A stretch of 55,291 nt of DNA from Thermoprotei archaeon. Lineage in GTDB: Archaea > Thermoproteota > Thermoprotei > Gearchaeales > WAQG01. Position 1 is the stretch's first letter, and every line of letters starts with the position of its first letter. This document shows positions 3,768-46,337 of the stretch, piece by piece. The DNA lies in contig JBMFIF010000004.1 in NCBI GenBank assembly GCA_049976445.1, forward strand, positions 1 through 55,291, in the 5' to 3' direction. Under the pieces are notes generated by a model that was given only the letters and a program-made list of their open reading frames with translations, was not told the origin of the DNA and did no database searches. A program made the translations under genes and the position numbers.

Positions 3768-4440
3768 ATGGTGAGAAATATTTTAAAAGAAACTATTTCA
3801 AAAATAACTAATGGTATCTCTATTAACGATTCTTATATCTACGCTAAAAACATTACTAAAGGCAGGTTTTCTGAAGAAATAAACCTTGATCTCTATTTAA
3901 AGAAATATGGGAGCGAGGTATTTCTTTTATCAGTAAAGATCTTTCAAGGACGAAAGCCTTACTATAAACCATGGGTAGAAATTTTCAACATTAATAATGA
4001 ACTGAAGATTAATAGCGAAAAAATTGTTTATTTTAATTCTGATCTTGAAAATGGTGTGCTTTTAACGTTTTCACATATGCTAGAAAATGGTGAGAGTATC
4101 TATGTAGAATACTACAACGACGTAGAAACTAAAAAGCAACTTGATTTAGATTTTCCCCCAGTTGTCTCTCGTCTTGGGCATAAATTATTCACTCTGGGTT
4201 TTTCCATGGTTTAAAAATTGGTATTTTCCAGAAGGATTTATGGAGGGAAATGTGAAACTCCAAGCTGAAAAACCTGTAAACAACAATGTGAAAATTATGC
4301 AATTAACAAAGATATATGATGAGGTTATTATATTCCTTAAAAAGATGGAAAATTTTGAAAGCGAATGGTACATTATTAACGCTGTAGAAAGAGCAAAAAA
4401 TATCGCATATGACCTTTTTAAAACTAAGAATCATACATGA
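3768..4440 (+). pseudogene. Hypothetical protein split over two overlapping frames (3768-4214 and 4162-4440). Frameshifted gene or homopolymer error.
   Basis: The two ORFs overlap by 53 nt in frames offset by +1. A T5 run (4199-4203) lies inside the overlap. Skipping one T joins '...HKLFTLGF' to 'PWFKNWYFPEGFMEG...'. Confidence 0.45.
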
Positions 4441-4694
4441 AGGATCTAGAGTTGGAAAATGTTTGGATTGTATCTAATAACACGAGTAGTTGAGTCATTT
4501 TAGGATAAATTTCATACTGTCTTGAGAAGATGTGTGTGAATTGGTTCATACTAACCTGATTCCACTACCAATAACACGAATTACTCACAAAGAATTTGCA
4601 AAATTTTACTATGGGCTGAAAAATAAGAAGATCATGACATGCTCATGTATTAGAATATATATAGTACTGAATAATAGTTTAAGTTAGGGTATAA

Positions 4695-7071: not shown

Positions 7072-7665
7072 CTAAAATGATGCAAAAAATGGAACAAGCA
7101 ACGCAGCAAGTAGCGTAAGTAATGTTCCGCTTATTATTGATGGTAATGAGTTCTCTATCCCAGAATAACGTATAATAAATGGGAGTGTCGTGTCCATAGA
7201 TGTTGCACCACCACTTGCTATTATAGCAGATGCTCCAAATTTTTTACCTAAAATTGGTGAAAGTATCATAGTAAAAAGCTCTCTAAAAAGGTTAGAAAGA
7301 AAACCTAGTATCCCAGCTTCAATACCAAGAAGTTTAAAGAGAACGGGACCAGTAAATGTATACCAACCAAATCCTGCTACGATAGATAGAGTTACCTTTG
7401 GCTGAATTCCTAAAACATAACTCATGAGAAATCCAAACATTAAAGTTCCTATGATTGATGATATAGGTGCTATTAAAGTTTCTAAGCTTAACTCCCTAAA
7501 TTTTTTTGGTAAACTTTCATCAATACTTATTCCAAGACCAACAACAAATATTAAACCGTAAAGCACTAATGTTTCTAAATCCTCTATTAATAAGGTATTA
7601 TTTAAATGGATAAGTCGTCCAATAAGAAATCCAATCAGTAAAGATATGATAGCTTCTTTAATCAT
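7072..7665 (-). CDS. LysO/DUF340-family membrane protein (large part)
   Basis: Polytopic membrane protein containing 'GFGWYTFTGPVL' and 'GGATSMDTTLPFI'. Overlaps the upstream small membrane ORF by 4 nt. Confidence 0.5.
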   Translation of the reverse strand: MIKEAIISLLIGFLIGRLIHLNNTLLIEDLETLVLYGLIFVVGLGISIDESLPKKFRELSLETLIAPISSIIGTLMFGFLMSYVLGIQPKVTLSIVAGFGWYTFTGPVLFKLLGIEAGILGFLSNLFRELFTMILSPILGKKFGASAIIASGGATSMDTTLPFIIRYSGIENSLPSIISGTLLTLLAALLVPFFASF

Positions 7666-7934
7666 TTTGCGTACCTCGTAATAATATAGGCTACTACAGC
7701 GCTCCCTAAAATTGACGCTAAAGCTAAGGCTAAAGATTTGAGCCCTAAAATCGTAAGACTCTGAACGATTGTTTCACTACTACCTAAACTAACACCTATA
7801 AGAAAAAGTAGTACTATAACAAAAAATACTAAATATTTGTCAACATTTATTTGTAAATGCTTATGCTTCATAGCATGACCAACAGCAAATCCTAAGGACA
7901 ATATTACAATTATGCTTAATGTGAAATAATCCAT
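7662..7934 (-). CDS. Small membrane protein, probable N-terminal half of a split LysO/DUF340 exporter
   Basis: 90 aa with three hydrophobic segments. Translationally coupled to 7072-7665. Confidence 0.45.
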   Translation of the reverse strand: MDYFTLSIIVILSLGFAVGHAMKHKHLQINVDKYLVFFVIVLLFLIGVSLGSSETIVQSLTILGLKSLALALASILGSAVVAYIITRYAK

Positions 7935-10592: not shown

Positions 10593-11651
10593 CTATTTTT
10601 GGATGTTAATAAGTCTGTTGTATGTTGTCAATATTTTTTCTTTTGTTTGTTGATCGACTTTTTTAATTTTTGCTATAAGTGTTCCGCTTTTTAATAATGT
10701 TATATCAAAACCATCTTCAACATTAAATGTTATGCTTAAGTTACTGGTTAATAATGGTTTCCATCCTTCTTTAATCCCTTTTTCTTTGATTCTAGATAGG
10801 TCTATGTTTTTAATTATTTTGTTTACGAAGTATACTCCTGAACCATCTCGTGCACAACTCGCTTCTATTTCTTCTATTTTTATAGGTTCAGGTTTTCTTT
10901 CTGGTGCTGTTCCACATACAGGGCATTTTTCGTTTCTGTTTATATTAAGTGTTACAAATTCCATTGTTTTTAAATCTATGTACATAAGTTTGTTTTTTAG
11001 TAATGGTTCCTGGTTCATTATTATTCTTAGCGCTTCTGAAACTGCTATGCTTGCGACTACGAACGTTACGCTTGGATGTACTCCTACGATCGCACATCTT
11101 GGCAGTGTGTCTTCATTATAAATTCCGCCGTAAAAACATTCTAAGCATGGTGTTTTTCCTGGGATTATTGTTGTGACATTTCCATACATTTCTAATGCTG
11201 CGGCGAATATGTATGGTTTTTTTAATTTTACTATTGTTCTGTTTATTATGTATCTTGCTCTTAAATTATCTAAACCATCTAGAACTACATCGACATCTTT
11301 GATTATGTCTTCAGCATTTTCTTCTGTAATAGGTTCAGCTATCACTTCTATCTTCATTCTTGGGTTTATTTCTTTTAATCTTTTTTCTGCTACTTCAACT
11401 TTTGGTTTATCTACATCTTTTCTTGTATAGAGTGGTTGTCTGTGCAGATCTGTTTTTGAGACTATATCCCTGTCCACAATTTTTAGGTATCCTAATCCCA
11501 TAGATGCAAGAAGCATAGCTGCTGGGCTTCCTAACCCTCCAACTCCTATTAATGCAATCTTTCCATTCTTTATTTTCTCTTGTCCGTTTAAGCCTATATC
11601 TTGTAGTACGATTTGTCTCGCGTATTCATCAATTTCTTCGTCGCTTAGCAA
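10593..11651 (-). CDS. E1-like ubiquitin-like-protein activating enzyme (ThiF/MoeB/UbaA family) with a C-terminal extension of about 95 aa
   Basis: Nucleotide loop 'LIGVGGLGSPAAMLLASMGLG', 'DRD', and zinc CxxC pairs 'CLEC' and 'CPVC'. About 95 further residues follow CPVCG with no rhodanese motif. Confidence 0.85.
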   Translation of the reverse strand: MLSDEEIDEYARQIVLQDIGLNGQEKIKNGKIALIGVGGLGSPAAMLLASMGLGYLKIVDRDIVSKTDLHRQPLYTRKDVDKPKVEVAEKRLKEINPRMKIEVIAEPITEENAEDIIKDVDVVLDGLDNLRARYIINRTIVKLKKPYIFAAALEMYGNVTTIIPGKTPCLECFYGGIYNEDTLPRCAIVGVHPSVTFVVASIAVSEALRIIMNQEPLLKNKLMYIDLKTMEFVTLNINRNEKCPVCGTAPERKPEPIKIEEIEASCARDGSGVYFVNKIIKNIDLSRIKEKGIKEGWKPLLTSNLSITFNVEDGFDITLLKSGTLIAKIKKVDQQTKEKILTTYNRLINIQK

Positions 11652-11695
11652 TATTATTCCCCCATTAAATATTAAATTAGAACTTATTTTTTTAT

Positions 11696-11977
11696 TTATC
11701 CACCTGCAACTATTGGTAGTATGTAAATTTCATCGTTCTCGTTCAATTTTGTTTCAATACCATTGAGTGTTTGAATATTTTTGCCGTTTACAAAGATACC
11801 GATTGTTGATTTTATTTGTTGGTTTTCATCTAATATTAAGTCTTTTAACGTTGCACCGTAAAGGTCTATTAATTTGTTTATTACATCTTTTACTTGGTTT
11901 GCATCTATATTAATAACGGTACTTCCCTTTACTCTTTGAGCTATGATTGAGTAGAGTTTTACTTTTACATTGACCAT
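11696..11977 (-). CDS. Ubiquitin-like beta-grasp sulfur carrier/modifier (MoaD/ThiS/SAMP/Urm1-like) ending in GG
   Basis: 93 aa. The C-terminus '...EIYILPIVAGG' is directly followed by the stop codon. Lies 6 nt downstream of the ThrC-like gene and 44 nt upstream of the E1-like gene. Confidence 0.8.
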   Translation of the reverse strand: MVNVKVKLYSIIAQRVKGSTVINIDANQVKDVINKLIDLYGATLKDLILDENQQIKSTIGIFVNGKNIQTLNGIETKLNENDEIYILPIVAGG

Positions 11978-11983
11978 TTAACA

Positions 11984-13198
11984 TCACCATGTTGCTATTT
12001 TGCTTTCAATAACCTGTAAATTAGCTTTTATCGGATTGGCTTTTAATTTTATTGCCTCTTGTTCGAAAATCTCAAGTGATTTAAACCCTGAACCTGTCAT
12101 TAAACAAACAATCTGTTCATCGGATTTGATAACATTGTTATTGACTAATTTTATTAATGCTGCTGTTGTTATTGCTCCAGCAGGTTCTGCGAATAAGCCC
12201 TCGTACTTTGCTAGGATTTTCATTGCATTTACTATTTCTTCATCGGTAACATCTATAGCTAGTCCTCTGCTTTCTTTAATAGCTTTTATTGCATAACGAC
12301 CATCAGCCGGATTACCGATAGCTAAACTTTTGGCTATTGTTTTACAATTACTAATACTAACTTGTCCAGTTTTATAGGCTGAGACTATTGGTGAGCAATT
12401 TTGGGGCTGAACACCTATTAAAGATACTTTTTTATTATCAACAAGATCGAGTGATATTAACTCGTTTAGTCCTTTCCATATCATGTAAAGAAGAGCTCCA
12501 CTAGCCATTGGTATGATAATTTTATCAGGTAATGACCAATTAAGTTGTTCGGCAATTTCGTATGCTAATATTTTTGATCCCTCTGCATAATAAGGTCTTA
12601 GGTTTACGTTTGCTAATCCATAAAGTCCATTCTCGGCTAACTGTAGTGTTAAAAAGTTTAGTTCGTCATAATTTCCATCAACCAGAAGTACATTGGCACC
12701 GTAAGCTATTGCTTGGACTATTTTGCTCAGTTCAGTATCGCTTGGAACTAGGACGAACGATGGTAATCCAACTCTACTTGACAATGCTGCAACTGCTGCT
12801 GCTAAGTTTCCTGTTGATGATGTTCCGATAGCCTTAAAGTTAAATTCTAAGGATTTAATTATTGCAACTGATGCAGGTCTGTCTTTAAACGAACCAGTTG
12901 GATTCAGCGTATCATTTTTGATATAAAATTCTTTTAAGCCTATTAATTGGTTTAATCTTGATGGTTTATAAAGCGGTGTAAACCCTATATCAGTAAATTG
13001 TTCTGGTATTGTCTTAACTGGTAAGAATTCTTTATATCTCCACATGTTTTTCCTTCTATTTTTTAGGTCATTAATCGAGAATTTTATTTCCTTAAAATCG
13101 TATACTACTTCTAAGGGCCCTAAGCATTTTTCACATACAAATCGCGCTTCTGGTTCATAAATCGTTCCGCATTCTCTACATCGTAATTTGAAACTCAT
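11984..13198 (-). CDS. Threonine-synthase-family PLP enzyme with an N-terminal zinc ribbon (ThrC, or a ThrC-like sulfur-incorporating paralogue)
   Basis: Zinc ribbon 'CRECGTIY...CEKCLG', PLP-lysine motif 'NPTGSFKDRPA', and 'SSTGNLAAA'. ATG at 13198; the ORF is open to 13261. Confidence 0.85.
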   Translation of the reverse strand: MSFKLRCRECGTIYEPEARFVCEKCLGPLEVVYDFKEIKFSINDLKNRRKNMWRYKEFLPVKTIPEQFTDIGFTPLYKPSRLNQLIGLKEFYIKNDTLNPTGSFKDRPASVAIIKSLEFNFKAIGTSSTGNLAAAVAALSSRVGLPSFVLVPSDTELSKIVQAIAYGANVLLVDGNYDELNFLTLQLAENGLYGLANVNLRPYYAEGSKILAYEIAEQLNWSLPDKIIIPMASGALLYMIWKGLNELISLDLVDNKKVSLIGVQPQNCSPIVSAYKTGQVSISNCKTIAKSLAIGNPADGRYAIKAIKESRGLAIDVTDEEIVNAMKILAKYEGLFAEPAGAITTAALIKLVNNNVIKSDEQIVCLMTGSGFKSLEIFEQEAIKLKANPIKANLQVIESKIATW

Positions 13199-13480
13199 TA
13201 AGTCCACCCCTTGTATTGAGATAAATTGATATAATAATTTTGTTTGAAAAAAATATTCCAAAAAGAATAAATTGTGCTAGGTTTTTACCTAAATTTTAAA
13301 TAATAATATTTTAAAATAATATGATAAGCAACGCTCAAATATCGTTTAATAGAAGAATGGCAAACTTCGCCCTTCAGAACGGGAAAGAGGTTAGTCAGCA
13401 ATCTGTGTTGTTAATTTTTTATTCAAATAAAACGTTTTTTTAAAATAAGCTTAAATTCTAAGTTTAAATAATAAATATCA

Positions 13481-34946: not shown

Positions 34947-35217
34947 AACAGAAACCATTGAAAAAATGTTAGGTTCAAAAAGCAAGATAAGAATCCTAGC
35001 AACATTAATCAAACACAGAGAAATCAACATAGCAAACCTCGTAAAAATATGCGGTTCAGGATATACAGCGATAGAAAGAAGCCTAAAAGACTTAGAAAAA
35101 ATAGGCATAATTACTGAAAAAAGATTTGGAAGAATAAGGATCATCAAACTAACAGAAAACGATAAAAGAGTACAGGCCCTTATAAAACTCTTCGAGACTC
35201 TCAATAAAACTAAATAA
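34936..35217 (+). CDS. Small winged-helix DNA-binding protein (ArsR/MarR-like), overlapping the cdc6 3' end
   Basis: 93 aa. 'SKSKIRILATLIKHREINIANLVKICGSGYTAIERSLKDLEKIGIITE'. Its ATG overlaps the last 11 nt of cdc6. Confidence 0.65.
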   Translation: MKDETETIEKMLGSKSKIRILATLIKHREINIANLVKICGSGYTAIERSLKDLEKIGIITEKRFGRIRIIKLTENDKRVQALIKLFETLNKTK

Positions 35218-35220
35218 ACA

Positions 35221-35423
35221 TGCTTTGTTGCATAATTCGTGCGTGGTTTTGTGGAGCGTTTCACACGTTCCCCCCAATCTCATGATGCTTACTGATGTGG
35301 TTTGATGTATGCTAGTTAAAAGTGTTTTAAAATTGTGAGAAAACATCATCAAACACTCAACACACAAGAATCCTATATATAAAAAAACACACCAAAAGTA
35401 CGTCAGAATTATGCAACAAAGCA
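35221..35423 (+). mobile_element. MITE-A copy 2
   Basis: TIR 'tgctttgttgcataatt' ... 'aattatgcaacaaagca'. 8-bp TSD 'aataaaca' (35213-35220 and 35424-35431); the left TSD contains the stop codon of the wHTH gene. Confidence 0.88.
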
Positions 35424-35734
35424 AATAAACACAAAAATTTATATTCCTAATCAATCTATATACCTCAGCGATGATTGATCTGACCCCAATGACGGGCTCT
35501 TTTAAACAAAAGCCCGAATGAAATAGATCTTGAGTGATGAGCTAATATTAAAATGTTTAATAAATTTAATAAAAATTTATCAGCTTTATTTATTTAAATA
35601 ATTTACCTAAAAGTTATGATCGACAAAAGATATTAAGATAATATCAGATAAACTTAGTAAAACTTATAGGATAGAATTTATATTTGAATAAATAGTATAG
35701 TTGAATGTTTTACAAATATATGGTGGTATATATG

Positions 35735-36463
35735 TTTGAATTAAGAAATGTTGAAGTTTTTATAAATAATCGTAGAATTTTACATAATGTGAATTTCTCT
35801 GCAAATAACGGTGAGTTTCATATCATACTAGGTCCTAATGCATCTGGAAAAACTTCTCTTTTAAATGCTATTATGGGCATTAAACCCTACATGATCTCTA
35901 AAGGAAATGTCATCTTTATGGGTTATGATATAACTCATGAACCACCTCATATCAAAGCTAGGAAAGGTTTGGCCTTGGCACATCAATTACCACCGTCTAT
36001 AAAGGGTCTATTGGTTAAAAGTTTCATTGAAGAGCTAATTAAGAGATATAGTACTGAAAAAAGCTATATTGAACTGCTTTCTTCGATACTGGATATTAAA
36101 GGTTTGATGAATAAGTACTTATTTACAGATATGAGCGGTGGTGAGAGAAAAAGATTAGAAACGTTTTTAACATTCCTAATGAAACCTAAAGTAATTATGC
36201 TTGATGAACCGGATAGCGGTGTTGATATCGAGAGTCTTAATAAGATTGCTGATGTTATAAAAATTGCTCTCAAAATGAAAATAATAGTAATTTTAGTCAC
36301 ACATTCACTGCATATGCTTAAGATCTTAGAAAGTCACATCAATAGTGTTCACATAATTTATGGTGGAACTATTATGTGTTCGGGAACTTACAGTGATATC
36401 ATACCATTAATTGAAAAATATGGCTTTTCACAAGCAATCACAGAATTGTTAGCGAGGTCATAA
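35735..36463 (+). CDS. sufC: Fe-S cluster assembly ATPase SufC
   Basis: Walker A 'GPNASGKTS', ABC signature 'MSGGERKR', Walker B 'MLDEPDSG'. Confidence 0.9.
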   Translation, partial: FELRNVEVFINNRRILHNVNFSANNGEFHIILGPNASGKTSLLNAIMGIKPYMISKGNVIFMGYDITHEPPHIKARKGLALAHQLPPSIKGLLVKSFIEELIKRYSTEKSYIELLSSILDIKGLMNKYLFTDMSGGERKRLETFLTFLMKPKVIMLDEPDSGVDIESLNKIADVIKIALKMKIIVILVTHSLHMLKILESHINSVHIIYGGTIMCSGTYSDIIPLIEKYGFSQAITELLARS

Positions 36464-36466
36464 AAA

Positions 36467-37690
36467 ATGAACCGTGATCTAATAGTTAAGGCACTAAATA
36501 AAGCATCTCCTTATGGACCTGATATAAATTTAGAAAAGTTCGAATTAGGATTACCTTCAGGTGAAACAGTATTCTCTTCGTCTGTAAGCGATACTATGGT
36601 AGAAAGAATATCCAATAGGCTTGGTTTTAGTAATAATGTTGTAAAGAAGGCTGGATATTTACAAGTTAATGAATCAGTAATGATAAGAATTATGAGTGAA
36701 AAGCTTGAAAAGCATGGGGCAATAGTTTTACCAACTAAGGATGCATTAAAAAAGTTTGAATGGGTTAAAGATTATTCATGGAAACTTATAAATCCTGATA
36801 AGGATAAGTATGTGGCCGCAGTATATCTCTACGGTAATGAATTGGGATATTTCATTTATGTTCCACGTAATACAAAAATTAAAGAGCCTATATATACATG
36901 TCTTTTTATGACTAAAAATAATCTCGCTCAACTACTTCATAACATAGTTATTGTAGATAATGACGCTGAATTAAATCTAGTAACTGGATGCGGTGTTCCT
37001 GATCAACCGCTCGGCTCATTACATGCTGGTATTTCAGAATTCTACATTGGTAAAAATGCAAAATTAACATTCACTATGATCCATGCATGGTCACCAGGAA
37101 TGTTTGTTAGGCCTAGAACTACTATAGAGGTGATGGACGGAGGTGAATTTGTAAACTATTATGTGATTTACTCGTCAGTTAATTCTTTACAAACATATCC
37201 TCAAGTAATTCTTAGAGATAATTCTAAAGCGACACTTACTTCAGTAATCATAGGCAAAGGTGAAAGCATATACGATGTCGGGTCTGCAATAACGTTAGCT
37301 GGCAAAAATTCATCAGGGGAAATACTTTCGAGAAATTTAGGAAGAGGTAAATCTAAAATATACGCTAGATCTCGGATTGATGGTGTATTAGGTCCTTCTA
37401 AAGGTCATATAGAATGTTTAGGACTTCTCGAAGATGATACTTCAATAATAAATGCTATACCAGAATTAAGTTCATCAACTCCTGATACCATACTCACACA
37501 TGAGGCATCTATAGGTAAGATTAATGAGGAATTGATTAATTACTTAATGAGTAAAGGATTTACTGAAGATGAAGCCCGCGCTGCAATTATTAAAGGATTC
37601 TTGCACGTTGAGGAACCGAAATTACCTCCTCAAGTTATGGATACGATTAAAAGAACAATCGAATACATTGTATCAAAAGCGACCGGCTAA
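36467..37690 (+). CDS. SufB/SufD-family Fe-S assembly protein
   Basis: 407 aa immediately downstream of sufC. The beta-helix-type C-terminal region ends in '...THEASIGKINEELINYLMSKGFTEDEARAAIIKGF', typical of SufB/D. Confidence 0.85.
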   Translation: MNRDLIVKALNKASPYGPDINLEKFELGLPSGETVFSSSVSDTMVERISNRLGFSNNVVKKAGYLQVNESVMIRIMSEKLEKHGAIVLPTKDALKKFEWVKDYSWKLINPDKDKYVAAVYLYGNELGYFIYVPRNTKIKEPIYTCLFMTKNNLAQLLHNIVIVDNDAELNLVTGCGVPDQPLGSLHAGISEFYIGKNAKLTFTMIHAWSPGMFVRPRTTIEVMDGGEFVNYYVIYSSVNSLQTYPQVILRDNSKATLTSVIIGKGESIYDVGSAITLAGKNSSGEILSRNLGRGKSKIYARSRIDGVLGPSKGHIECLGLLEDDTSIINAIPELSSSTPDTILTHEASIGKINEELINYLMSKGFTEDEARAAIIKGFLHVEEPKLPPQVMDTIKRTIEYIVSKATG

Positions 37691-37694
37691 AAAG

Positions 37695-39560
37695 TTAAAA
37701 AATTATTTTATTTAATTCTGACATATCTTTTATGCTGTTCATTTTTATCATTTTGTCAGAAATTGTGTACAATACATCGTCTATATAAAGAATTCGTTTT
37801 ATGAAATATTTTCCCTCGTAAAATAAATTTGAAGTAAGATTCATGGTAGTGTTTAGATGAGAGATCTTACCTATTACTACAAATCCTTTCTCTAATGATA
37901 CATTAAAAACATATGCACCTTGCCAAATAGGTTTTCCATATTCATATGGTGGTGAGTTTGGGTCTTTTACTGCAACAAGTACAGGTATTGCCAAAAGTTT
38001 TCTTTTATAATCAAACAATAATGCTTTGTGATCATTAAGTATCGGAGAGTCTGAACCTCTATCTCCTATAATATATTTTGCAATTTCTTTTGGATTTTTA
38101 GGATCAGATACATCGAACAATGATATCTTTATACCTTGATACCATGCAAAATTGCCATAGGAATCTTCAACAGTATCCTTACCTATACCAATTACATGAG
38201 TCTCATCGTATAGATGTAAATAATTTGAATACCCAGGTATTTTTAACCATCCTAATACTTTTGGATGAATTGGGCTGCTTAAATCAATTACAAATAATGG
38301 ATCAGTCTTTTTGAAAGTTACTAAATAACCCTTATCACCAATAAATCTTGCTGAATAAATCCATTCACCAGGAGCTAAATCTGTAATGTTACTTATTATT
38401 TTCATATTATTCACATCAAGAATATATACATCATTCTTCGGTTCTGCATCCCATCTAGTTGTCGTAACTCTGAGATAACCATTATATTCATCTATTGAAA
38501 ACTGATTTAATATTGTACCTGGAACTTCACCGCTAGCTTTATATTTAATATTGTTACCACTAACACTAAATCTATAAATTAGTGTATTTTCATAGAAATT
38601 TCTAATAATTGGCATATTACTAAGAACAGGGGGTGCTTTCCACTTTGCAGATGTTATGTAAAGATTATGTAATGCCATATAAAGAGTATGCGCATCACCA
38701 AGTAAGAATGCACCAATGGCTGGATTTTCATAACCATTCACATTAAGAGCAGCAATTATAGTATATTCGTAGTAAGTTTCATTTGACTCTGGTAAATAAA
38801 ATATTTGATTAGCAGGTATATTAATTATTGCATCATTAATTTTAATCATTGGAATCTTAACAGATTCAAAAATATCTGGATTAGGAACACCCCAAAGAAA
38901 TGTTTTATGAAAATTGACAGCTGGGACTTTCGCAATAAGATAAATGTAGTCTTCTATAGCTCTTGATTCAAAATAAAATCCATTAACAGAAAAATCTGTT
39001 ATTAATTTTGGTATATTTCTATCCTCTATATCATATATTTTTATACTAACTTCATAATTATCATTTGAATCTTTACTCATTATTACTGAAAGTTTGTCAT
39101 TAAACAAAAATATGCCAATAATTTTACCGTCAAGCACAATCTTAGATAAAATATTACTATATTCCGGAGGATACGCCATGATTATATAAACTGTGTTATT
39201 CGAGGCAACATAAATATATTTACCATCAGTTTTCACAATATCTAATTCGTCAATACCCTCAACTTGAACATTAGTCTTAGAATAATAACTAGATTGATCA
39301 GACGCTGTTGCTCGTAATGGAGTTTCTAACGTTGCAGTTCCATATACAGGAATAACATTATACGATAAATGCTTAGAAATGAAAAATCTCAGCTCATTAT
39401 AAGATGAGAAGCTTTTAATTCCTTTAGCACCTGTAATATCAATGGCCTTGATAAATCTATTACTGGTTACATTCTCATTATAGTGAACCATTACTGCTAT
39501 TGATAACAGTATTAATAGTAGCACTGCAAAGGCAAAAAATTTTTCTGAGTTAAAGTTCAT
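37695..39560 (-). CDS. Secreted or membrane-anchored beta-propeller-domain protein
   Basis: N-terminal hydrophobic anchor 'FFAFAVLLLILLSIAVMV'. Repetitive beta-rich sequence; 'FSIDEYNGYLRVTTT' resembles the beta-propeller (pfam09826-like) family as I recall it. Confidence 0.55.
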   Translation of the reverse strand: MNFNSEKFFAFAVLLLILLSIAVMVHYNENVTSNRFIKAIDITGAKGIKSFSSYNELRFFISKHLSYNVIPVYGTATLETPLRATASDQSSYYSKTNVQVEGIDELDIVKTDGKYIYVASNNTVYIIMAYPPEYSNILSKIVLDGKIIGIFLFNDKLSVIMSKDSNDNYEVSIKIYDIEDRNIPKLITDFSVNGFYFESRAIEDYIYLIAKVPAVNFHKTFLWGVPNPDIFESVKIPMIKINDAIINIPANQIFYLPESNETYYEYTIIAALNVNGYENPAIGAFLLGDAHTLYMALHNLYITSAKWKAPPVLSNMPIIRNFYENTLIYRFSVSGNNIKYKASGEVPGTILNQFSIDEYNGYLRVTTTRWDAEPKNDVYILDVNNMKIISNITDLAPGEWIYSARFIGDKGYLVTFKKTDPLFVIDLSSPIHPKVLGWLKIPGYSNYLHLYDETHVIGIGKDTVEDSYGNFAWYQGIKISLFDVSDPKNPKEIAKYIIGDRGSDSPILNDHKALLFDYKRKLLAIPVLVAVKDPNSPPYEYGKPIWQGAYVFNVSLEKGFVVIGKISHLNTTMNLTSNLFYEGKYFIKRILYIDDVLYTISDKMIKMNSIKDMSELNKIIF

Positions 39561-39811
39561 TTTTTACACCATCATATTCATATATTATGAAAATAATAAT
39601 GCTAAACTTAAGAACAAACTGTCTAAAAAATAGAACAATCCATTAGCTAATAACAAAGAGTATGTCTTAGTTTATAGATAACGTTATAGCCACGATCAGC
39701 CATCCAACTGCATTTAATACTTGTGGATATGCGTTATGGGCAAGGTGGAGTTGTGAGACAGAAAACCCCCGCCTTTGGTCAGGAGTAGCTTATAATAGAA
39801 ATAGGATAATC

Positions 39812-39999
39812 TGCTTTGTTGCATAATTTTGATGTGCTTTTTATGCTGAGAATTCTTTTGCTAGTTTGATGATGCCTCCTCACAGTTTTAATGAACACTC
39901 TCAACTAACATACATCAAAACATGTTAGCAAACATCATGAGATTGGAAGAGACACGCGAAATGCTCCACAAAACTATGCACAAAATATGCAACAAAGCA
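39812..39999 (-). mobile_element. MITE-A copy 3 (interior inverted relative to copies 1, 2 and 4)
   Basis: TIR 'tgctttgttgcataatt' ... 'aaatatgcaacaaagca'. 8-bp TSD 'ggataatc' (39804-39811 and 40000-40007). Confidence 0.88.
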
Positions 40000-40030
40000 G
40001 GATAATCGAAAATAATATAAGCTGGTTTTC

Positions 40031-41212
40031 GTGTTTATAATTGCTATGTTAATAGCGTTGTTTGGTTCCGGTTTTATTGGTAAGAGTTTAGTGAAGAAGT
40101 TGGTTAATTATGATTTTGTTGATGAGCTGGTTGTGGTGGATAAGAATCAAGAAGCGTTAGATATGGTAAGGAAGATGATCACAAGTGATAAGATTACGTT
40201 CGAGCGTCAGGATGTAAGTGATATTGATATAATTTCTAAAATAATTTCAAGAATGGATTTGTCTATAGTAGCCCTTCCTCCTTCATTGGTTGTGTTAAAT
40301 GTTATTAAGGTTTGCGCTGATATGGGATGTAATTATCTTGATTTAGGTTTAGGAGATTATCCTCTACTTGAGATTCTTAAAAATGAGGATATTTTTAAAA
40401 ATGCGGGTATTGCTGTATTTACTGGTTTTGGGTTAGCTCCTGGGATCACTAATATTATGGTAAAACATTTATCACATAGGCTTGATAGTATTGAGGAAGT
40501 GAAAATAAGAGATGGTTCGTTAGTGAATCCAGGAGACAGTATGTTTACTTTTACTTATTCTCCCTCAATTTTTTTGAGCGACTTTACTATAAAACCTTTG
40601 GTTTACAGAGATGGAGAATTTAAGCGAGTGCAACCTCTAAGCGAAGAGGAAGATTATGAGTTTCCTTCTCCTGTAGGAAATCTAAAGGTTTATTTGATAG
40701 ATCATGAAGAAGTATTTTCACTACCAAAGTACTTAGGAAAGGAGATGAAACATTTAGATTATAAGTTAGCTTTGACTGATGAAACATACCAAGTAATAAA
40801 GACTCTATTAAGATTGGGCCTTCTCAGAGATGATTATATAGAAATAAATGGTATAAAGATAAGCCCTAAATCTGTTCTTTTGGAACTTATTTTTAAATCT
40901 GTAAATCAAAGAGTTTTAGACGGTTATGAAATGTTAGTTGTGGATATTAAAGGATATAGAGGTGGTAACAAATTTAGGTTAAAAAGTTATATTTATATGA
41001 CGCATAAAGAAGCATTTGAAAAGTATAACGAAAACGCTACATCATATTTAACCTCTCTATTACCATTAACGATAGTAGAAATGTTACATAAAGGAGAAAT
41101 AGAGCAAACAGGTCTCATACTTCCCGAAATGCTCAACTGTGAGATCATGATTCAAAAATTAATATCTAAAGGATTACCTTATTTCGAGAAAGAAGAACCT
41201 GGACTTCAGTAA
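40031..41212 (+). CDS. Saccharopine dehydrogenase-family NAD(P)-binding oxidoreductase
   Basis: Rossmann N-terminus 'LFGSGFIGKSLVKKL' and 'GLAPGITNIM', typical of the saccharopine-dehydrogenase-like family. GTG start. Confidence 0.65.
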   Translation: MFIIAMLIALFGSGFIGKSLVKKLVNYDFVDELVVVDKNQEALDMVRKMITSDKITFERQDVSDIDIISKIISRMDLSIVALPPSLVVLNVIKVCADMGCNYLDLGLGDYPLLEILKNEDIFKNAGIAVFTGFGLAPGITNIMVKHLSHRLDSIEEVKIRDGSLVNPGDSMFTFTYSPSIFLSDFTIKPLVYRDGEFKRVQPLSEEEDYEFPSPVGNLKVYLIDHEEVFSLPKYLGKEMKHLDYKLALTDETYQVIKTLLRLGLLRDDYIEINGIKISPKSVLLELIFKSVNQRVLDGYEMLVVDIKGYRGGNKFRLKSYIYMTHKEAFEKYNENATSYLTSLLPLTIVEMLHKGEIEQTGLILPEMLNCEIMIQKLISKGLPYFEKEEPGLQ

Positions 41213-41228
41213 TTACCTGTTAAACTAG

Positions 41229-41478
41229 TATTGTTCCTTTTTTCTAGATGTTCGTGATCACCGCACAAGTTCATAATCATCAACAATCCTGTACTATTTC
41301 GTTCCTCGCCTTTGGAATGGCCGCTTAAAGGACTAACCCAAACCATATAGATATGGACTTCATAACAATACAAAACCACAAACTTCTATAGAAATCTATC
41401 CATTTGAGAACTGCCATCTAACCTTCTACTTCTAAAAGTACAAAAATCCTAGTGAAAGAGGTTTTTTGAGGGTTTCAT
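41229..41478 (+). repeat. Repeat B copy 1 (asymmetric element without a TIR, about 250 bp)
   Basis: Collinear similarity to 49054-49275: 'tattgttcctttttt...gttcgt...aggactaac...caaaaccacaa...gagaactg...gag..tttcat'. No consistent ORF. Confidence 0.55.
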
Positions 41479-41763
41479 GAAATTTCTATTAATAATTCTT
41501 TAACACTCTTATTCTATCTATTCACTTTACAGAGTAAAAATACTATTATATAATGATATTCTTATAGAATATATGCTTGTTTAAAATCATTTACCTAACT
41601 CTTCTTATCAGATCATAAACCTAATAAAATATATACTCAGGTAGTGTATAGTATTTTTGGTGATGTTATGATAAGTTCAAACATTCGTACAGCATCCGCA
41701 TATATTCTAGCTTTTAGATTCTTAAAATCTATGAATAATTATTTATAAAATTGTTTTGTTGGG

Positions 41764-42432
41764 GTGATATCTTTGAATATAGAGCACAGCAATGAAGTTA
41801 GAATTTCTGAGAATATTGTTGTTAATGGTAACAAGAAGACTATACGATTAAGCAAGCAAACATACATTGCTGAAGATATTATGGCAATTAATTTCGCAAG
41901 AGTTCTTGAAGAGTTTAGCTTGAAGTATGCTGTCGTGGCTGGATATATAGCTATACTGTTTGGTCGTGCAAGGAGAAGTGACGATATAGACTTTATTGTT
42001 GAAAAGATTAATGAAGATATTTTTGTTAAACTCTGTAAAGCCTTAAAATTAGTAGGATTTTCTTTTATACAAGGCAATGTATCATCTGAGGATTCAGTCA
42101 GAGATATTTATAAACGATATCTAGCTGAAGGTCATGCTATTCGTTTTATATATGAAAATATCTTTTTGCCTAATATTGAACTTAAGATGATTAGTAGTCC
42201 TTTTCATGATTATTCCATTAAGCATGCTTATATTGTTATACTCAATGATAAAGACAAAATTAAGATTGCTCCATTAGAGTTCCAGATAGCTTATAAGTTA
42301 TATTTAGGTTCAGCAAAGGATGTAGGTGATGCGGTATTTCTTTATAACTTGTTTAAACCTACTATTAAAGAAGACGAATTAGAAAAATGGTGTATGGAGT
42401 TAGAAGTAGACTTACATATGTTACATAGGTAA
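41764..42432 (+). CDS. Nucleotidyltransferase-fold protein (AbiEii/DUF6036-like minimal NTase plus helical C-domain)
   Basis: 'VVAGYIAILFGRARRSDDIDFIV' (G-x-...-S-x-D-x-D pattern) and C-terminal 'APLEFQIAYKLYLGSAKDVGDAVFL'. GTG at 41764; an alternative ATG lies at 41881. Confidence 0.6.
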   Translation: MISLNIEHSNEVRISENIVVNGNKKTIRLSKQTYIAEDIMAINFARVLEEFSLKYAVVAGYIAILFGRARRSDDIDFIVEKINEDIFVKLCKALKLVGFSFIQGNVSSEDSVRDIYKRYLAEGHAIRFIYENIFLPNIELKMISSPFHDYSIKHAYIVILNDKDKIKIAPLEFQIAYKLYLGSAKDVGDAVFLYNLFKPTIKEDELEKWCMELEVDLHMLHR

Positions 42433-42442
42433 GGCGTCATCT

Positions 42443-42682
42443 ATGACCATTGCTCTTAAAAAGGTCATCGAAAAGGATAAGAAAAGGATTATCGAGGATG
42501 AGATTGAGCATGCTAAATGGGAAGCTGAGATGGTTAAGAAACTTGGAAATGAATGGTTTGAAATAAGAGATAAATGGCTTAGTGAAGCATTTAAGGCAGA
42601 TCAAAAACTGTTAAAAGATCCAAAAATACGAGAATCACTAATCAAAGCAATCCTAGCAAAAAACCACGATAATCTCCAGTAA
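42443..42682 (+). CDS. Small charged alpha-helical protein coupled to the NTase gene
   Basis: 79 aa starting 11 nt after the NTase stop. Lys/Glu-rich with no recognisable motif. Confidence 0.4.
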   Translation: MTIALKKVIEKDKKRIIEDEIEHAKWEAEMVKKLGNEWFEIRDKWLSEAFKADQKLLKDPKIRESLIKAILAKNHDNLQ

Positions 42683-42915
42683 CCTTTTAGTAAGATATTT
42701 TATGGAAATAACGCTTTAAGGACAATAAAAACAATCATATAATAATAGCGAATTTATCTTTAAATAGAACAATTTTTATATCTAATATAAAAATATTCAG
42801 AGACGTAAAGAAACTCGCAGTAATCATGCCAAACATACACTAAATCTTTCCCGTAACATATAATGTTCTAAATCTCTTGAGTTAAAGATTAGGTGAGAGT
42901 TTGCCTTGTGTTTTG

Positions 42916-43269
42916 TTATTCGCTTAGTTTTTTAAGTATTTTGCGGATGTCTGCTGGGTTTGTGTTGAGTATTTTTGCTATGTCTTCTATTGATAGTGAG
43001 GGGTCTGCTGTTAGTAGTGATTTTACTTTGTTTTCGAGTCTTTGTTCCTCGCTGCCTTCATCGAAGAAGTTGATTTGTGCTAGGACCGAGCCACTTATAA
43101 ACACTCTTGGTATTCTATTTCCTTTTTCGTAAGCTTCTTCTAGTATAATACTGTTGTCTTGTGGGTTAAATAGGGCTAGTTTTCCAACTATTACACGTCC
43201 ATCGAGAGTTCTGATTTCTACGATAGTTCCTATTTTATCCCTAATCTTGCTGTATATTGAGTTGCTCAC
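42916..43269 (-). CDS. Sm-like (LSm) domain protein with a C-terminal HTH-like extension
   Basis: Sm1/Sm2-like 'IGTIVEIRTLDGRVIVGKLALFNPQDNSIILEEA...RVFISGSVLAQI', followed by 'LSIEDIAKILNTNPADIRKILKKL'. Confidence 0.6.
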   Translation of the reverse strand: MSNSIYSKIRDKIGTIVEIRTLDGRVIVGKLALFNPQDNSIILEEAYEKGNRIPRVFISGSVLAQINFFDEGSEEQRLENKVKSLLTADPSLSIEDIAKILNTNPADIRKILKKLSE

Positions 43270-43420
43270 ACACTACACCACTAATAAATTGTACAATTGG
43301 ATTTAAAAGTTTAAGCTATACGTGTCTAAGAACGTATGGTTAGCATTGTTTTATAAAACGAAATTTGTCATTTAGAGACATTCCTTAATTGATCAATATA
43401 TGATCAAAAATAAATCGTGT

Positions 43421-44464
43421 TTAGAAAAGTTTGAATGATAGGTTATCTACTAGTTTTTTAATGGTGCTTAAATGTTTGTTATCTAGAATGTTGAGTTTTG
43501 AATAAAGACTTAAATATTTTGTCGCGTCGTCCGCAAATATTAGGACTGCAATTCCTTTGACACCTTCGTTGCTAAGTTTTAATGCTGCTGCTAGTACGGC
43601 GCCTGAAGAAGGCCCTATTAGAATGTTTTCTTTTTCTGCAGCTAGTGCTACAGCCTTGAATGCCTCTTCATCGTTTATTCTTATCCATCTGTCAATGATC
43701 TTAATTCTCTTGGAGAGTACTGGTGGTATGCCTGATTCTTCAAAGTTTCGTAGTCCTTGTATATGATGGTTTTTCTGTGGTTCCACAGCTATTATTTCAA
43801 CGCTTCCGTGTTCTTTTAAGTATGTACCTGCACCCGATATAGTGCCTCCTGTTCCGACACCTGCTATAAAGTGTGTGATTTCTCCCTTAGTTTCTTTCCA
43901 TATTTCTGGTCCTGTACTTTCGTAATGTGCTAAAAAGTTTGCCTCGTTTTCATATTGGTTTGGCATGAAGTATTGATCAGGATAACTCTCAACTATGGAT
44001 TTAGCTAGTGCAATGCTTTGATCTGTTCCTTTGCCAACTCTAGGGCACAGGTCGTCCGGTGTTTCAAAGATTTCCGCTCCTATGCTCTTTATTAATAGTT
44101 TTGTTTCATCACTTATTGCCTGAGGAACTACTGCATAAAATTGATATCCTAATGCTCTGGATATGCATGCCAAAGCTATTCCTGTATTACCTGATGTTGG
44201 TTCTATTATTTTTTTATTTTTAGAAAGTAATCCTTCGTTTTCAGCCATTTTAATCATCCAATATGCTGCTCTGTCCTTCAGAGAACCAAATGGGTTTGCC
44301 CATTCTAACTTTGCATATAGTTTAAGTCCTCCATTTTCTAGGTTACTGAGACGTAATAGGGGGGTATTTCCAACTTTTAATTTGTCGCTTGTTAGTAATC
44401 CTTTACTAGCTAGACTTATGTTGTTGATCCAATATTTTATAACGTTAATGTTTAACTCGTACAT
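43421..44464 (-). CDS. Cysteine synthase / O-phosphoserine sulfhydrylase-type PLP enzyme (CysK/CysM family)
   Basis: PLP lysine 'GSLKDRAA', 'PTSGNTGIALA', 'GVGTGGTISG'. 347 aa. Confidence 0.85.
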   Translation of the reverse strand: MYELNINVIKYWINNISLASKGLLTSDKLKVGNTPLLRLSNLENGGLKLYAKLEWANPFGSLKDRAAYWMIKMAENEGLLSKNKKIIEPTSGNTGIALACISRALGYQFYAVVPQAISDETKLLIKSIGAEIFETPDDLCPRVGKGTDQSIALAKSIVESYPDQYFMPNQYENEANFLAHYESTGPEIWKETKGEITHFIAGVGTGGTISGAGTYLKEHGSVEIIAVEPQKNHHIQGLRNFEESGIPPVLSKRIKIIDRWIRINDEEAFKAVALAAEKENILIGPSSGAVLAAALKLSNEGVKGIAVLIFADDATKYLSLYSKLNILDNKHLSTIKKLVDNLSFKLF

Positions 44465-44470
44465 ATCTGT

Positions 44471-44699
44471 TCAACCTACCGTGATCTTAATGATGTAGTT
44501 GTCATTATTATCGGTTATTGTAAATTTATAACCTCCATTTGTTAGTGTAGTAATAAGTGATCGTAATGTCGACTCGGATTTATCACATATCACTTCGATG
44601 CTTACTTCTTTTTCTATGTTTTTTATTTCGTTTAATTTTTTAATAGTTAAGAAAGATGGATACGGACGGGGGCATTCCTGGCATAAAAATTTTGTTCAT
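44471..44699 (-). pseudogene. TusA-like sulfur carrier domain (CPxP). It has no in-frame start unless a 1-nt frameshift is allowed.
   Basis: The frame ending in TGA at 44471-44473 reads '...CQECPRPYPSFLTIKKLNEIKNIEKEVSIEVICDKSESTLRSLITTLTNGGYKFTITDNNDNYIIKITVG'. The only upstream ATG (44699, 'MNKIF') is in the +1-offset frame across a T5 run (plus-strand A5 at 44685-44689). Confidence 0.55.
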
Positions 44700-44855
44700 A
44701 GTATCTTTACGTATTAAATCTAAACCTTTCATCGTTGCATATAAATGAGCTTTTACACCTAAACTGCTAGCTGCTAACATTAGAGTCAATGCCGGATATA
44801 CACGTTCTGGTTCATTTGAAACTAAAACTATATGCAATTCTTGTTTATCACTCAT
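44640..44855 (-). pseudogene. DsrE/DrsE-family N-terminal fragment
   Basis: 'ELHIVLVSNEPERVYPALTLMLAASSLGVKAHLYATMKGLDLIRKD' matches the N-terminal half of DsrE-like proteins. The frame terminates early (71 aa) and overlaps the TusA-like frame. Confidence 0.5.
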
Positions 44856-45076
44856 ATGAATCACTATAACATATGTTATAGCTGATATATAAACTTGATG
44901 ATGAATACGACTTTTTACAAAAAGTTTATCATAACAACTCTGTTGTTTTCTGATGATTATTATCAATATATCTATTGTCACGAAAATTGTTTACTCATGA
45001 GAATATTTTATGTTATTTTTCCAATTTTTCCTTAAAGTTTATTTTTATGTAGGAATCGCTTAAAGTGGTGAACAAG

Positions 45077-45547
45077 ATGCCAGTTAATATAGGACAGAAA
45101 GCTCCTGATTTTACACTACTAGACATGAATTTTAAACCTAGGAGCTTACAAGAGTTTGTTTGTTCCCAGAATGTAGTATTAGTATTCTTTCCAGCAGCAT
45201 TCAGTTCTGTGTGTACTAAAGAGATGTGTACTTTTAGAGATAGTATGACAAAATTAAACTCACTTAAAGCTAATGTAATAGGAATTAGCGTTGATACGCC
45301 GTTTGCACAAAAAGCATTCGCTGAACATAATAAACTTAATTTTACGCTCTTAAGTGATTTCAATAAAGAAGTAATAAAACTTTATGATGTTGTACTCCAA
45401 GATTTGCTGGGGTTAAAAGAGCTTGCAAAAAGAGCTGTCTTTATAATAGATAAAGAAGGCATTGTTAGGTATAAGTGGGTTTCTGATGATCCAAAGGTTG
45501 AGCCCAATTATAATGAAATAATAAAAGAATTAGAGCGTATTGGATAA
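45077..45547 (+). CDS. Peroxiredoxin (AhpC/TSA/Bcp-like)
   Basis: 'VLVFFPAAFSSVCTKEMC' peroxidatic-Cys motif. ATG at 45077. Confidence 0.88.
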   Translation: MPVNIGQKAPDFTLLDMNFKPRSLQEFVCSQNVVLVFFPAAFSSVCTKEMCTFRDSMTKLNSLKANVIGISVDTPFAQKAFAEHNKLNFTLLSDFNKEVIKLYDVVLQDLLGLKELAKRAVFIIDKEGIVRYKWVSDDPKVEPNYNEIIKELERIG

Positions 45548-45569
45548 ATAATATTTTTGATATATTTTA

Positions 45570-46337
45570 TTGGTGGTTTTTTTGAAACTAAAGGGTGAAG
45601 TAGCTGTTATAACTGGATCCAGTAAAGGTATTGGAAGGTTTATAGCATTAGAATTTGCTAAAGAGGGTGCAAAAGTTGTAGTCAACTACTCTAAATCCAA
45701 GGATGAAGCTGTGAAAGTAGTTAGAGAGATTCAGGAGTTAGGTTCTGAAGCTATAGAAATCCAAGCTGATGTTTCATCTGAAGGTGATGTAAAAAAACTC
45801 TTTGATGAGACTGTAAAAAATTATGGATACGTTAGTATATTAGTTAACAATGCTGGTCATGGCTCGAAAGCTTATTGGAACCTGAGTCTCTGGGATATAA
45901 ATAAAAGGGAGTGGGACGAAGTGTTTTCAATCGATCTTTGGGGAGCGTTTCTCTGTTCTAAAGAAGCATCCAAAATTATGCTTAATCATGGTCATGGTAG
46001 TATAGTAAATATAACTTCTACACCTGGTGTTGCGGGAGGTAGTGATGGAATTATCTATGCAATTGCAAAATCTGGTGTTGTAGGATTAACAAGAACACTC
46101 GCTAATATATTAGCACCAAAAATAAGAGTTAATGCTGTAGCGCTTGGAAGTGTTAGAACCGATTGGTTACAATGGATTAGTAATAAAGAAATTGAAGAAC
46201 TCATTAATCATATTCCACTAAAAAGACTTGGTGAACCAGAAGAAGTAGCGAAAGTAGTGTTATTTCTTGCATCACAAGACTCAAGCTATATAACAGGGCA
46301 AGTAATTATTGTTGATGGAGGTGTAGTGACTTGGTGA
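45570..46337 (+). CDS. Short-chain dehydrogenase/reductase (FabG-like)
   Basis: 'ITGSSKGIG', 'NNAG', catalytic 'YAIAKSG'. The start is ambiguous (TTG/GTG at 45570-45582). Confidence 0.88.
   Translation: MVVFLKLKGEVAVITGSSKGIGRFIALEFAKEGAKVVVNYSKSKDEAVKVVREIQELGSEAIEIQADVSSEGDVKKLFDETVKNYGYVSILVNNAGHGSKAYWNLSLWDINKREWDEVFSIDLWGAFLCSKEASKIMLNHGHGSIVNITSTPGVAGGSDGIIYAIAKSGVVGLTRTLANILAPKIRVNAVALGSVRTDWLQWISNKEIEELINHIPLKRLGEPEEVAKVVLFLASQDSSYITGQVIIVDGGVVTW

Follow-up and report, generated by a model that had tools for sequence, protein, structure and literature searches.

Gene content and layout of the locus

The locus lies on the minus strand of a stretch of archaeal DNA of 55,291 nucleotides (hereafter the window) and contains two overlapping open frames followed by an intact gene. 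The first frame is a dsrE-like N-terminal ORF, which starts at ATG 44855 and ends at a TAA at 44642-44640 (71 aa, reading MSDKQELHIVLVSNEPERVYPALTLMLAASSLGVKAHLYATMKGLDLIRKDTMNKIFMPGMPPSVSIFLNY). The second, offset by +1, is a TusA-like frame that stays open from 44695 to a stop at 44473-44471 (reading TKFLCQECPRPYPSFLTIKKLNEIKNIEKEVSIEVICDKSESTLRSLITTLTNGGYKFTITDNNDNYIIKITVG); its translation begins with TKFLCQECPRPYPSFLTIKKL and ends with YIIKITVG. Six nucleotides separate this stop from the ATG (44464) of the third gene of the cassette (43421-44464), which encodes an intact CysK/CysM/CBS-like PLP enzyme of 347 aa (Pfam PALP, E 9e-69, 232 bits). This layout agrees with the first-pass annotation, which had described a DsrE-family N-terminal half starting at ATG 44855 with an early stop at 44640, and a TusA-like domain ending 6 nt before a cysteine-synthase-like ATG. 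That annotation also gave the TusA-like frame no start codon of its own, and our search found none: 5' of 44695 the frame has 13 stops in 53 codons, and no ATG, GTG or TTG occurs between the last of these stops (44698-44696) and the domain. The other elements it had listed, an ATG at 44699 (MNKIF), a T5 run (44689-44685 on the minus strand) and a C5 run (44672-44668), lie where it had placed them.

A TATA-box-like motif (TTTATATA, minus strand, 44893-44886) can be read from the sequence 30 nt 5' of the dsrE ATG, and is probably the cassette promoter, kept in the window. A promoter and terminator scan of bacterial type carries no information for an archaeon. An AGGT-containing stretch is found 9-12 nt before the ATG of the PLP enzyme gene; since both this stretch and the cassette promoter have been kept, the gene is probably still expressed. 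The genes around the site in the window (peroxiredoxin, SDR, PTPS and PALP) are all full length. A tblastn search with intact DsrE and TusA proteins identified no paralogue of either gene elsewhere in the window.

The intact cassette in related archaea

Relatives were found by a word-based search with the read-through of the two fragments, and the contigs encoding them were then compared with the window. The search returned TusA proteins of 80 aa, with 100% identity to the fragment where the two overlap, as well as DsrE-like proteins (125-127 aa) that are about 90% identical. Hot-spring archaeal contigs 99.3-99.9% identical to the window encode a dsrE of 127 aa, a tusA of 80 aa and a PLP enzyme of 347 aa. 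At two such loci, L035 (GCA_023255895.1) and L037 (from a JGI hot-spring metagenome), the three are separate genes, and the neighbourhood is that of the window: PTPS, SDR and peroxiredoxin lie together on one strand, opposite the cassette and a 117-aa gene.

The first-pass annotation had proposed to check whether dsrE and tusA are separate, intact genes at orthologous loci, and this is what we observed at the four loci with clean gene calls (L035, L039, L040 and L043). There dsrE (121-129 aa), tusA (77-81 aa) and PALP (339-351 aa) each have their own start. PALP begins 7 nt after tusA in L035, 6 nt after it in L039 and 42 nt after it in L043, and in L040 the two genes overlap by 4 nt. Lineages with a TusA only about 75% identical keep the dsrE-tusA-PALP order together with a gene of 117-119 aa, and have peroxiredoxin, SDR and PTPS running the opposite way. 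In L034, two A6-to-A5 differences inside the segment of 253 bp discussed below truncate dsrE and shift the start of tusA, and the SDR and PALP genes are split; L036 likewise has homopolymer breaks.

A 253-bp deletion across dsrE and tusA

The alignment of the window with L035 (blastn) consists of two blocks of 99.7% identity. Window positions 45100-44668 correspond to L035 1817-2250, and positions 44667-43301 to L035 2504-3871, so that L035 2251-2503, a stretch of 253 bp, has no counterpart in the window. The same break, between 44668 and 44667, was found against each of seven loci (L034, L035, L036, L037, L039, L040 and L043, about 73-99.9% identical at the DNA level), every one of which carries about 250 bp extra. 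At the junction (44667-44668) the window reads ...ATGCCCCC followed directly by GTCCGTATCC... (with a longer left flank, ...GGAATGCCCCC followed by GTCCGTATCC...), and the intact allele carries AGTTGAAGAATAT...GGTTTAGTAT at this site, absent in the window form. From the blastn break points and a flank-extension test, the junction is blunt, with no shared bases: neither flank could be extended by a single base against L035, which leaves no microhomology, and no direct repeats or shared k-mer were found at the two deletion ends. As a separate observation, L035 has an 8-nt inverted repeat nearby (2256-2263 and 2477-2484), which, in AT-rich DNA, we take as chance.

The missing segment takes in the 3' end of dsrE (residues 64-127, VEEYLKNALSVGAHICACAPSKEML...GGIVLFI, and the stop), 11 nt of spacer, and the 5' end of tusA, namely residues 1-15 (MNEEKKYILDVRGLV) plus one base, the first, of the Cys16 codon. 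Because 253 is 3x84+1, the remainder of tusA stands in the +1 frame relative to the remainder of dsrE. We infer an ancestor with three co-directional genes, namely a short DrsE_2-type dsrE (127 aa), tusA (80 aa) and the CysK/CysM-like PLP enzyme (347 aa). A single blunt deletion would have taken the last 64 codons of dsrE, the spacer, the first 15 codons of tusA and one base more. The resulting frame offset would account for both the picture of two domains in overlapping frames and the accidental Cys-Pro at the junction, and ribosomes starting at 44855 would stop at 44640. We give this reading, in which the overlapping-frame fragments are the remnants of one 253-bp deletion across dsrE and tusA, a probability of about 0.7.

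The dsrE and tusA remnants

The dsrE-like remnant (DrsE_2 family; 44668-44855, minus strand) comprises codons 1-62 and the first two bases of codon 63, and lacks codons 64-127. The intact L035 protein matches the window over residues 1-63 (44855-44667) with 100% identity (tblastn). Against DrsE_2 (PF13686) the fragment gave E 4.5e-5 and 23.9 bits over profile positions 3-54 of 156, below the gathering cut-off of 25. The intact orthologue, with 48 bits, passes the Pfam threshold; its match falls into two stretches and extends to profile position 154. The deleted part contains Cys81 (ACAPS motif), nearly invariant in an alignment of 15 relatives and thus absent in the window; this cysteine aligns with that of PDB 3pnx. 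Beyond the junction the truncated ORF runs on through tusA DNA in the wrong frame (44640-44667, minus strand, ..SVSIFLNY) until the TAA at 44642-44640. We also considered whether tusA might start at the ATG at 44699, with the T5 run in between, and rejected this, since the codon is that of Met53 of DsrE, which is conserved (DTMNKI in relatives).

What is left of tusA (44471-44667, minus strand) begins with the second and third bases of the Cys16 codon and goes on through codons 17-80 to the stop; tusA has lost its start codon, the ribosome-binding region, the first strand and the catalytic Cys16. Residues 17-80 of the intact TusA (P0004, from L035) align at 44665-44474 with 100% identity (tblastn). 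With an E-value of 1.7e-4 and 21.8 bits, the fragment stays below the gathering threshold of the TusA family (PF01206), 28.6 bits, and its match is confined to profile positions 15-69 of 70. The intact orthologue reaches 41.8 bits, matches positions 2-69 and passes the Pfam threshold. The intact proteins of relatives match the two fragments at 100% identity, over 63 residues in one case and 64 in the other, which puts the homology far beyond chance.

The first-pass annotation had seen here a convincing TusA-like domain with a CPxP motif. The homology to TusA holds over 64 identical residues; the domain is incomplete, with residues 1-16 missing, and the apparent active site is a chimera created at the junction. 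In relatives the native motif is GTA TGT CCG TAT CCA (V-C-P-Y-P), with Cys16 invariant in the alignment. In the window the TGT codon is cut by the deletion, and the DNA across the junction (marked by a slash) is ...GGA ATG CCC CC/G TCC GTA TCC..., which in the TusA-like frame (frame b) reads TGC CCC CGT CCG TAT CCA (C-P-R-P-Y-P). The TGC CCC of the apparent CPRP is A-TGC-CCC-C of dsrE (Met-Pro-Pro) read out of frame, and the Arg codon of CPRPYP spans the junction, so that the window cysteine stands two residues out of register (CPRPYP vs CPYP). The source of the accidental Cys-Pro is a piece of dsrE DNA in the +1 frame (44668-44695, minus strand, TKFLCQECP), which also holds the T5 and C5 runs. 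Neither sulfur-carrier gene is functional any longer: both lack the conserved cysteine, and tusA also its start. The case is a caution that a short catalytic-looking motif can arise by chance at a deletion junction.

Frameshift and homopolymer readings

Three explanations for the overlapping frames had been offered in the first-pass annotation: a homopolymer sequencing error, a recent inactivating frameshift, and a programmed +1 frameshift. According to the first, a one-base error in the T5 or the C5 run would split one or two ordinary genes. Errors of this kind do occur at the locus, where an A6 read as A5 breaks dsrE and tusA in L034. The sequence AAAATTTTTATGCCAGGAATGCCCCC, however, with T5 and C5 unchanged, lies inside the intact dsrE of L035 (a locus 99.7% identical), and no one-base change restores either gene, the 253 bases or the lost cysteines. 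The equal run lengths and the absence of a single-base rescue refute this explanation, and we give it practically no weight.

A programmed +1 shift, for example at CCC-CCG, would make a functional DsrE-TusA fusion. Mechanically, CCC_C allows a +1 slip, and it is situated between the frame-b stop (44698-44696) and the dsrE-frame stop (44642-44640). Against this, the arrangement is not conserved: the orthologues at the seven loci, all about 250 bp longer, are two separate genes (two ORFs in the four clean ones), and the same T5 and C5 runs are part of the relatives' intact dsrE, where no shift is needed. The product would join DsrE 1-62 to TusA 17-80; neither conserved cysteine would be in it, and half of the DsrE fold would be missing along with the first TusA strand. 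The region also has no RNA family match; an Rfam scan of 43000-45600 at E <= 1 gave none. As far as a comparison of loci can go, recoding is thereby refuted, its chances being vanishingly small.

The idea of a recent inactivating frameshift was correct as regards an inactivating mutation, and wrong as regards its nature, which is a deletion of 253 bp across both genes and not a 1-nt homopolymer lesion. We suggest that 44855-44471 be annotated as two pseudogene remnants (dsrE' and 'tusA) from one deletion; labels such as fusion, recoded gene or CPxP-bearing TusA should be avoided. The event is ordinary gene loss and decay, or an assembly variant, rather than a programmed frameshift. It resembles ordinary prokaryotic deletion pseudogenes in being an out-of-frame internal deletion across two adjacent genes that are intact in sister strains, and differs from them only in the accidental Cys-Pro that mimics the TusA motif at the junction.

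A deletion in the organism or in the assembly

Three public hot-spring runs (X1-X3) hold the locus as low-depth Logan contigs, and a 10-kb search gave the same three. The contigs of X1 and X2 match the window at 100% up to 44667/44668 and then continue into the ends of the missing segment (...AGTTGAAGAATATCTAAAAAACGCACTATC and AATATATTCTTGATGTCAGAGGTTTAGTAT...); that of X3, about 92% identical, has 261 letters at the deletion site. Junction words were listed for none of the public runs, a weak test in which 2 words were sampled. In the metagenome collection the 24-mer of the junction had no match, and the intact left boundary had one (L044). The exact sequences of the truncated DsrE ORF, the window PLP enzyme and the peroxiredoxin are not on record in the protein and contig collection. 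The deletion allele is so far unique to the window.

These observations bear on whether the gap exists only in the data, as an artefact that arose in assembly, in polishing or in the consensus, or through a low-coverage chimeric read, with dsrE and tusA intact in the organism. Every other data set with the locus (L034-L038, L044 and runs X1-X3) has the intact form, the remnants are without any decay, and the public runs cover the organism thinly, at about 3-7x. The clear indel errors in the sister assemblies L034 and L036 also indicate that error-prone data exist for this population. On the other hand, with no repeat or shared k-mer at the ends, a graph assembler needs junction-bearing reads to cross, and the flanking peroxiredoxin, SDR, PTPS and PALP genes are clean and full length. 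Long-read indels, moreover, are of 1-2 nt in homopolymers (as in L034), unlike a blunt deletion of 253 nt. We consider an artefact unlikely, and a recent deletion that is real in the organism, rather than only in its assembly, quite probable. Such a deletion would be very recent, because the remnants show no further decay (100% amino acid identity) and the flanks are 99.7-99.9% identical to the intact loci. If it is real, the strain offers a natural comparison without the relay discussed below.

The PLP enzyme

The PLP enzyme of the window differs by one residue from its L035 orthologue. Its translation contains both GSLKDRAA, which we take to be the segment of the PLP-binding lysine, and EPTSGNTGIALA, presumably the T-S-G-N-T substrate loop. 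The NCBIfam models for cysK, cysM, CBS and SbnA match it strongly, and those for cysKM, cysK, cysM and CBS do so below their curated cut-offs (TIGR01136 cysKM, 285.9 bits vs 344.15). In the PDB it is closest to cysteine synthases and cystathionine beta-synthases, and its matches there include the M. tuberculosis CysM structures 3dki and 3dwg (about 2e-48). Its sequence assigns it to the CysK/CysM/CBS group of type-II PLP enzymes as a whole. In the window, the enzyme would use free sulfide or thiosulfate. Its relatives in genome contigs (Nitrososphaeria and bacteria) are at most 57% identical, and near these neither DsrE nor TusA was found.

Possible function of the intact cassette

Judging from gene order and family knowledge, the intact cassette most likely would form a Cys-based relay, for persulfide or thiosulfonate, with the CysK/CysM-like enzyme at its receiving end. 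That related lineages conserve the cassette speaks mildly for such a relay as a source of sulfur for cysteine synthesis, a function which the first-pass annotation had proposed. In the window genome this relay is broken. Tentatively, the conserved cassette of this clade of hot-spring Thermoprotei could be a dedicated assimilatory relay, in which protein-bound sulfane sulfur or thiosulfonate would pass to the PLP enzyme and yield cysteine or S-sulfocysteine. In that case the window strain would be a double knock-out made by nature, with the synthase kept, and its survival might rest on plentiful sulfide or on a second module of ThrC-like, MoaD/SAMP-like and MoeB/ThiF-like genes. This module, at 10593-13261, is the second pairing of sulfur carrier and PLP enzyme in the window that the first-pass annotation had mentioned, and we confirmed it. 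The wider point is the conserved dsrE-tusA-cysK/M-like order in related archaea, a modest, testable lead on a sulfur route to cysteine synthase.

Several known systems resemble the cassette in part. In Metallosphaera cuprina, DsrE3A and TusA are reported to carry thiosulfonate or sulfane sulfur on cysteines, which DsrE3A transfers to TusA (PMC4175335). The relatives of the window pair a one-Cys DsrE-superfamily protein with a CP-x-P TusA, much like the DsrE3A/DsrE2B/TusA proteins of this thermophilic crenarchaeon (PMC4175335) and, in sHdr systems, the cascades of DsrE, TusA and rhodanese (PMC11094781). Unlike in those systems, there is no hdr, lbpA or dld near the cassette, and the partner is a PLP enzyme of the assimilatory CysK/CysM-like type. 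The DsrE-like protein of the relatives is also different, being short (121-129 aa), of the DrsE_2 type and without profile positions about 55-96 of 156; against the NCBIfam DsrE2 model the intact protein scored 24 bits, for a cut-off of 210. A further difference is that in the window both dsrE and tusA are destroyed.

YeeD, a TusA-family protein, takes part in the uptake of thiosulfate for assimilation, with YeeE/YeeD (TsuA/TsuB) feeding CysM (PMC11073785). As in YeeE/YeeD (PMC11073785), the cassette has a TusA-family protein beside cysteine assimilation; the intact TusA is best matched by YedF/TusA models, and aligns with E. coli YedF (1je3) across the CPYP motif. The cassette differs in having no YeeE-like membrane protein and a DsrE-like partner, and it is gene order that links it to the PLP enzyme.

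In the CysO-CysM system of Mycobacterium tuberculosis, cysteine synthesis depends on the thiocarboxylate of a sulfur carrier. What the two have in common is the idea that a PLP enzyme of the CysM type receives its sulfur from a protein-bound donor; the carrier there is a ubiquitin-like thiocarboxylate, whereas here it would be a Cys persulfide on TusA/DsrE. A ubiquitin-like module of the CysO-CysM type is present in the window separately, as the ThrC-like/MoaD-SAMP/MoeB genes at 10593-13261.

A more distant short DsrE-like relative (P0018, 71% identity) is encoded near an FTR1-like gene, a PF03601 membrane protein, a NIR_SIR sulfite-reductase-type protein and another TusA, a neighbourhood that again points to an assimilatory sulfur setting.

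Length differences and gene calls around the cassette

Compared with the near-identical relative GCA_023255895.1 (L035), which carries an intact dsrE-tusA-PALP cassette, the window shows two single-base length differences, both of them intergenic. The first lies in the spacer between tusA and the PALP gene (window 44465-44470), where the window has one base fewer (ACAGATATG vs ACACGATATG in L035); in another comparison, it appears as a G inserted after 44467. The spacer measures 6 nt in the window, 7 nt in L035 and 6 nt in the comparison locus L039. The second is found in an A run 5' of dsrE (~44911), which is A5 in the window vs A6 in L035.

Two public MAG records, GCA_049973215.1 (L034) and GCA_049970455.1 (L036), contain several split genes within 3 kb, with broken calls for an SDR (166+74 aa), PALP (85+275 aa) and DsrE (92 or 98 aa). 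We verified two A6-to-A5 differences in dsrE/tusA of L034. The gene splits in the two records probably stem from homopolymer errors in assembly, which makes the calls of a 73-aa TusA and a truncated DsrE untrustworthy.

L034, a sister contig 99.9% identical to the window, also has 61 bp inserted in the promoter region of dsrE (3469-3538, corresponding to window ~44904-44912), which are absent from both the window and L035. The insertion is accompanied on both sides by a 9-bp direct duplication (AGTCGTATT), and its ends (GAGGCTG...CAGTCTC) form an imperfect 7-nt inverted repeat. It resembles a very small MITE-like element or a footprint.

Region downstream of the cassette

Downstream of the PLP gene lies a gene for a 117-aa Sm-like protein (window 42916-43269, minus strand), for which there was no Pfam match at E <= 0.001. 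The gene (117-119 aa) is kept directly 3' of the cassette in the comparison loci L034, L035, L037, L039, L040 and L043. In L040 (~77% identity to the window), the 119-aa gene is followed within ~200 bp (4249-4441) by cdc6, a wHTH gene, truA and RFC, whereas in the window ~7.7 kb (~35195-42929) separate the cassette's downstream gene from this block. Given its content, namely a nucleotidyltransferase islet, a gene of saccharopine-dehydrogenase type and another of 621 aa, this stretch has the look of an accessory insertion adjoining the replication cluster. Part of it is common to L039 (~86% identical to the window).

Other sulfur-related loci

The first-pass annotation had pointed to a second sulfur-carrier/PLP module in the window, and such a module is indeed present on the minus strand (10593-13261). 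Its three genes, all intact, encode a ThrC-like PLP enzyme of 425 aa (NCBIfam thrC, 253.8 bits, above the cut-off), a MoaD/SAMP1-like small protein of 93 aa, and a MoeB/ThiF/UbaA-like E1 enzyme of 352 aa. The module could be an ordinary threonine synthase beside a SAMP system; alternatively, it could be a route to sulfur amino acids that depends on a thiocarboxylate.

The short DsrE-like family also occurs in a second, different sulfur-assimilation context: in JGI metagenome contigs (L045/L046, 4001-8390), a 129-aa member, 71% identical, is the first gene of a cluster that includes an FTR1-like permease, a PF03601 membrane protein, TusA and a sulfite/nitrite-reductase-type protein of 476 aa.

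LysO-like ORFs

Two ORFs of 90 and 197 aa, overlapping by 4 nt on the minus strand (window 7072-7934), match the LysO lysine-exporter family, the former to its N-terminal part and the latter to the full profile; the pair may represent two genes or a single gene that has been split.
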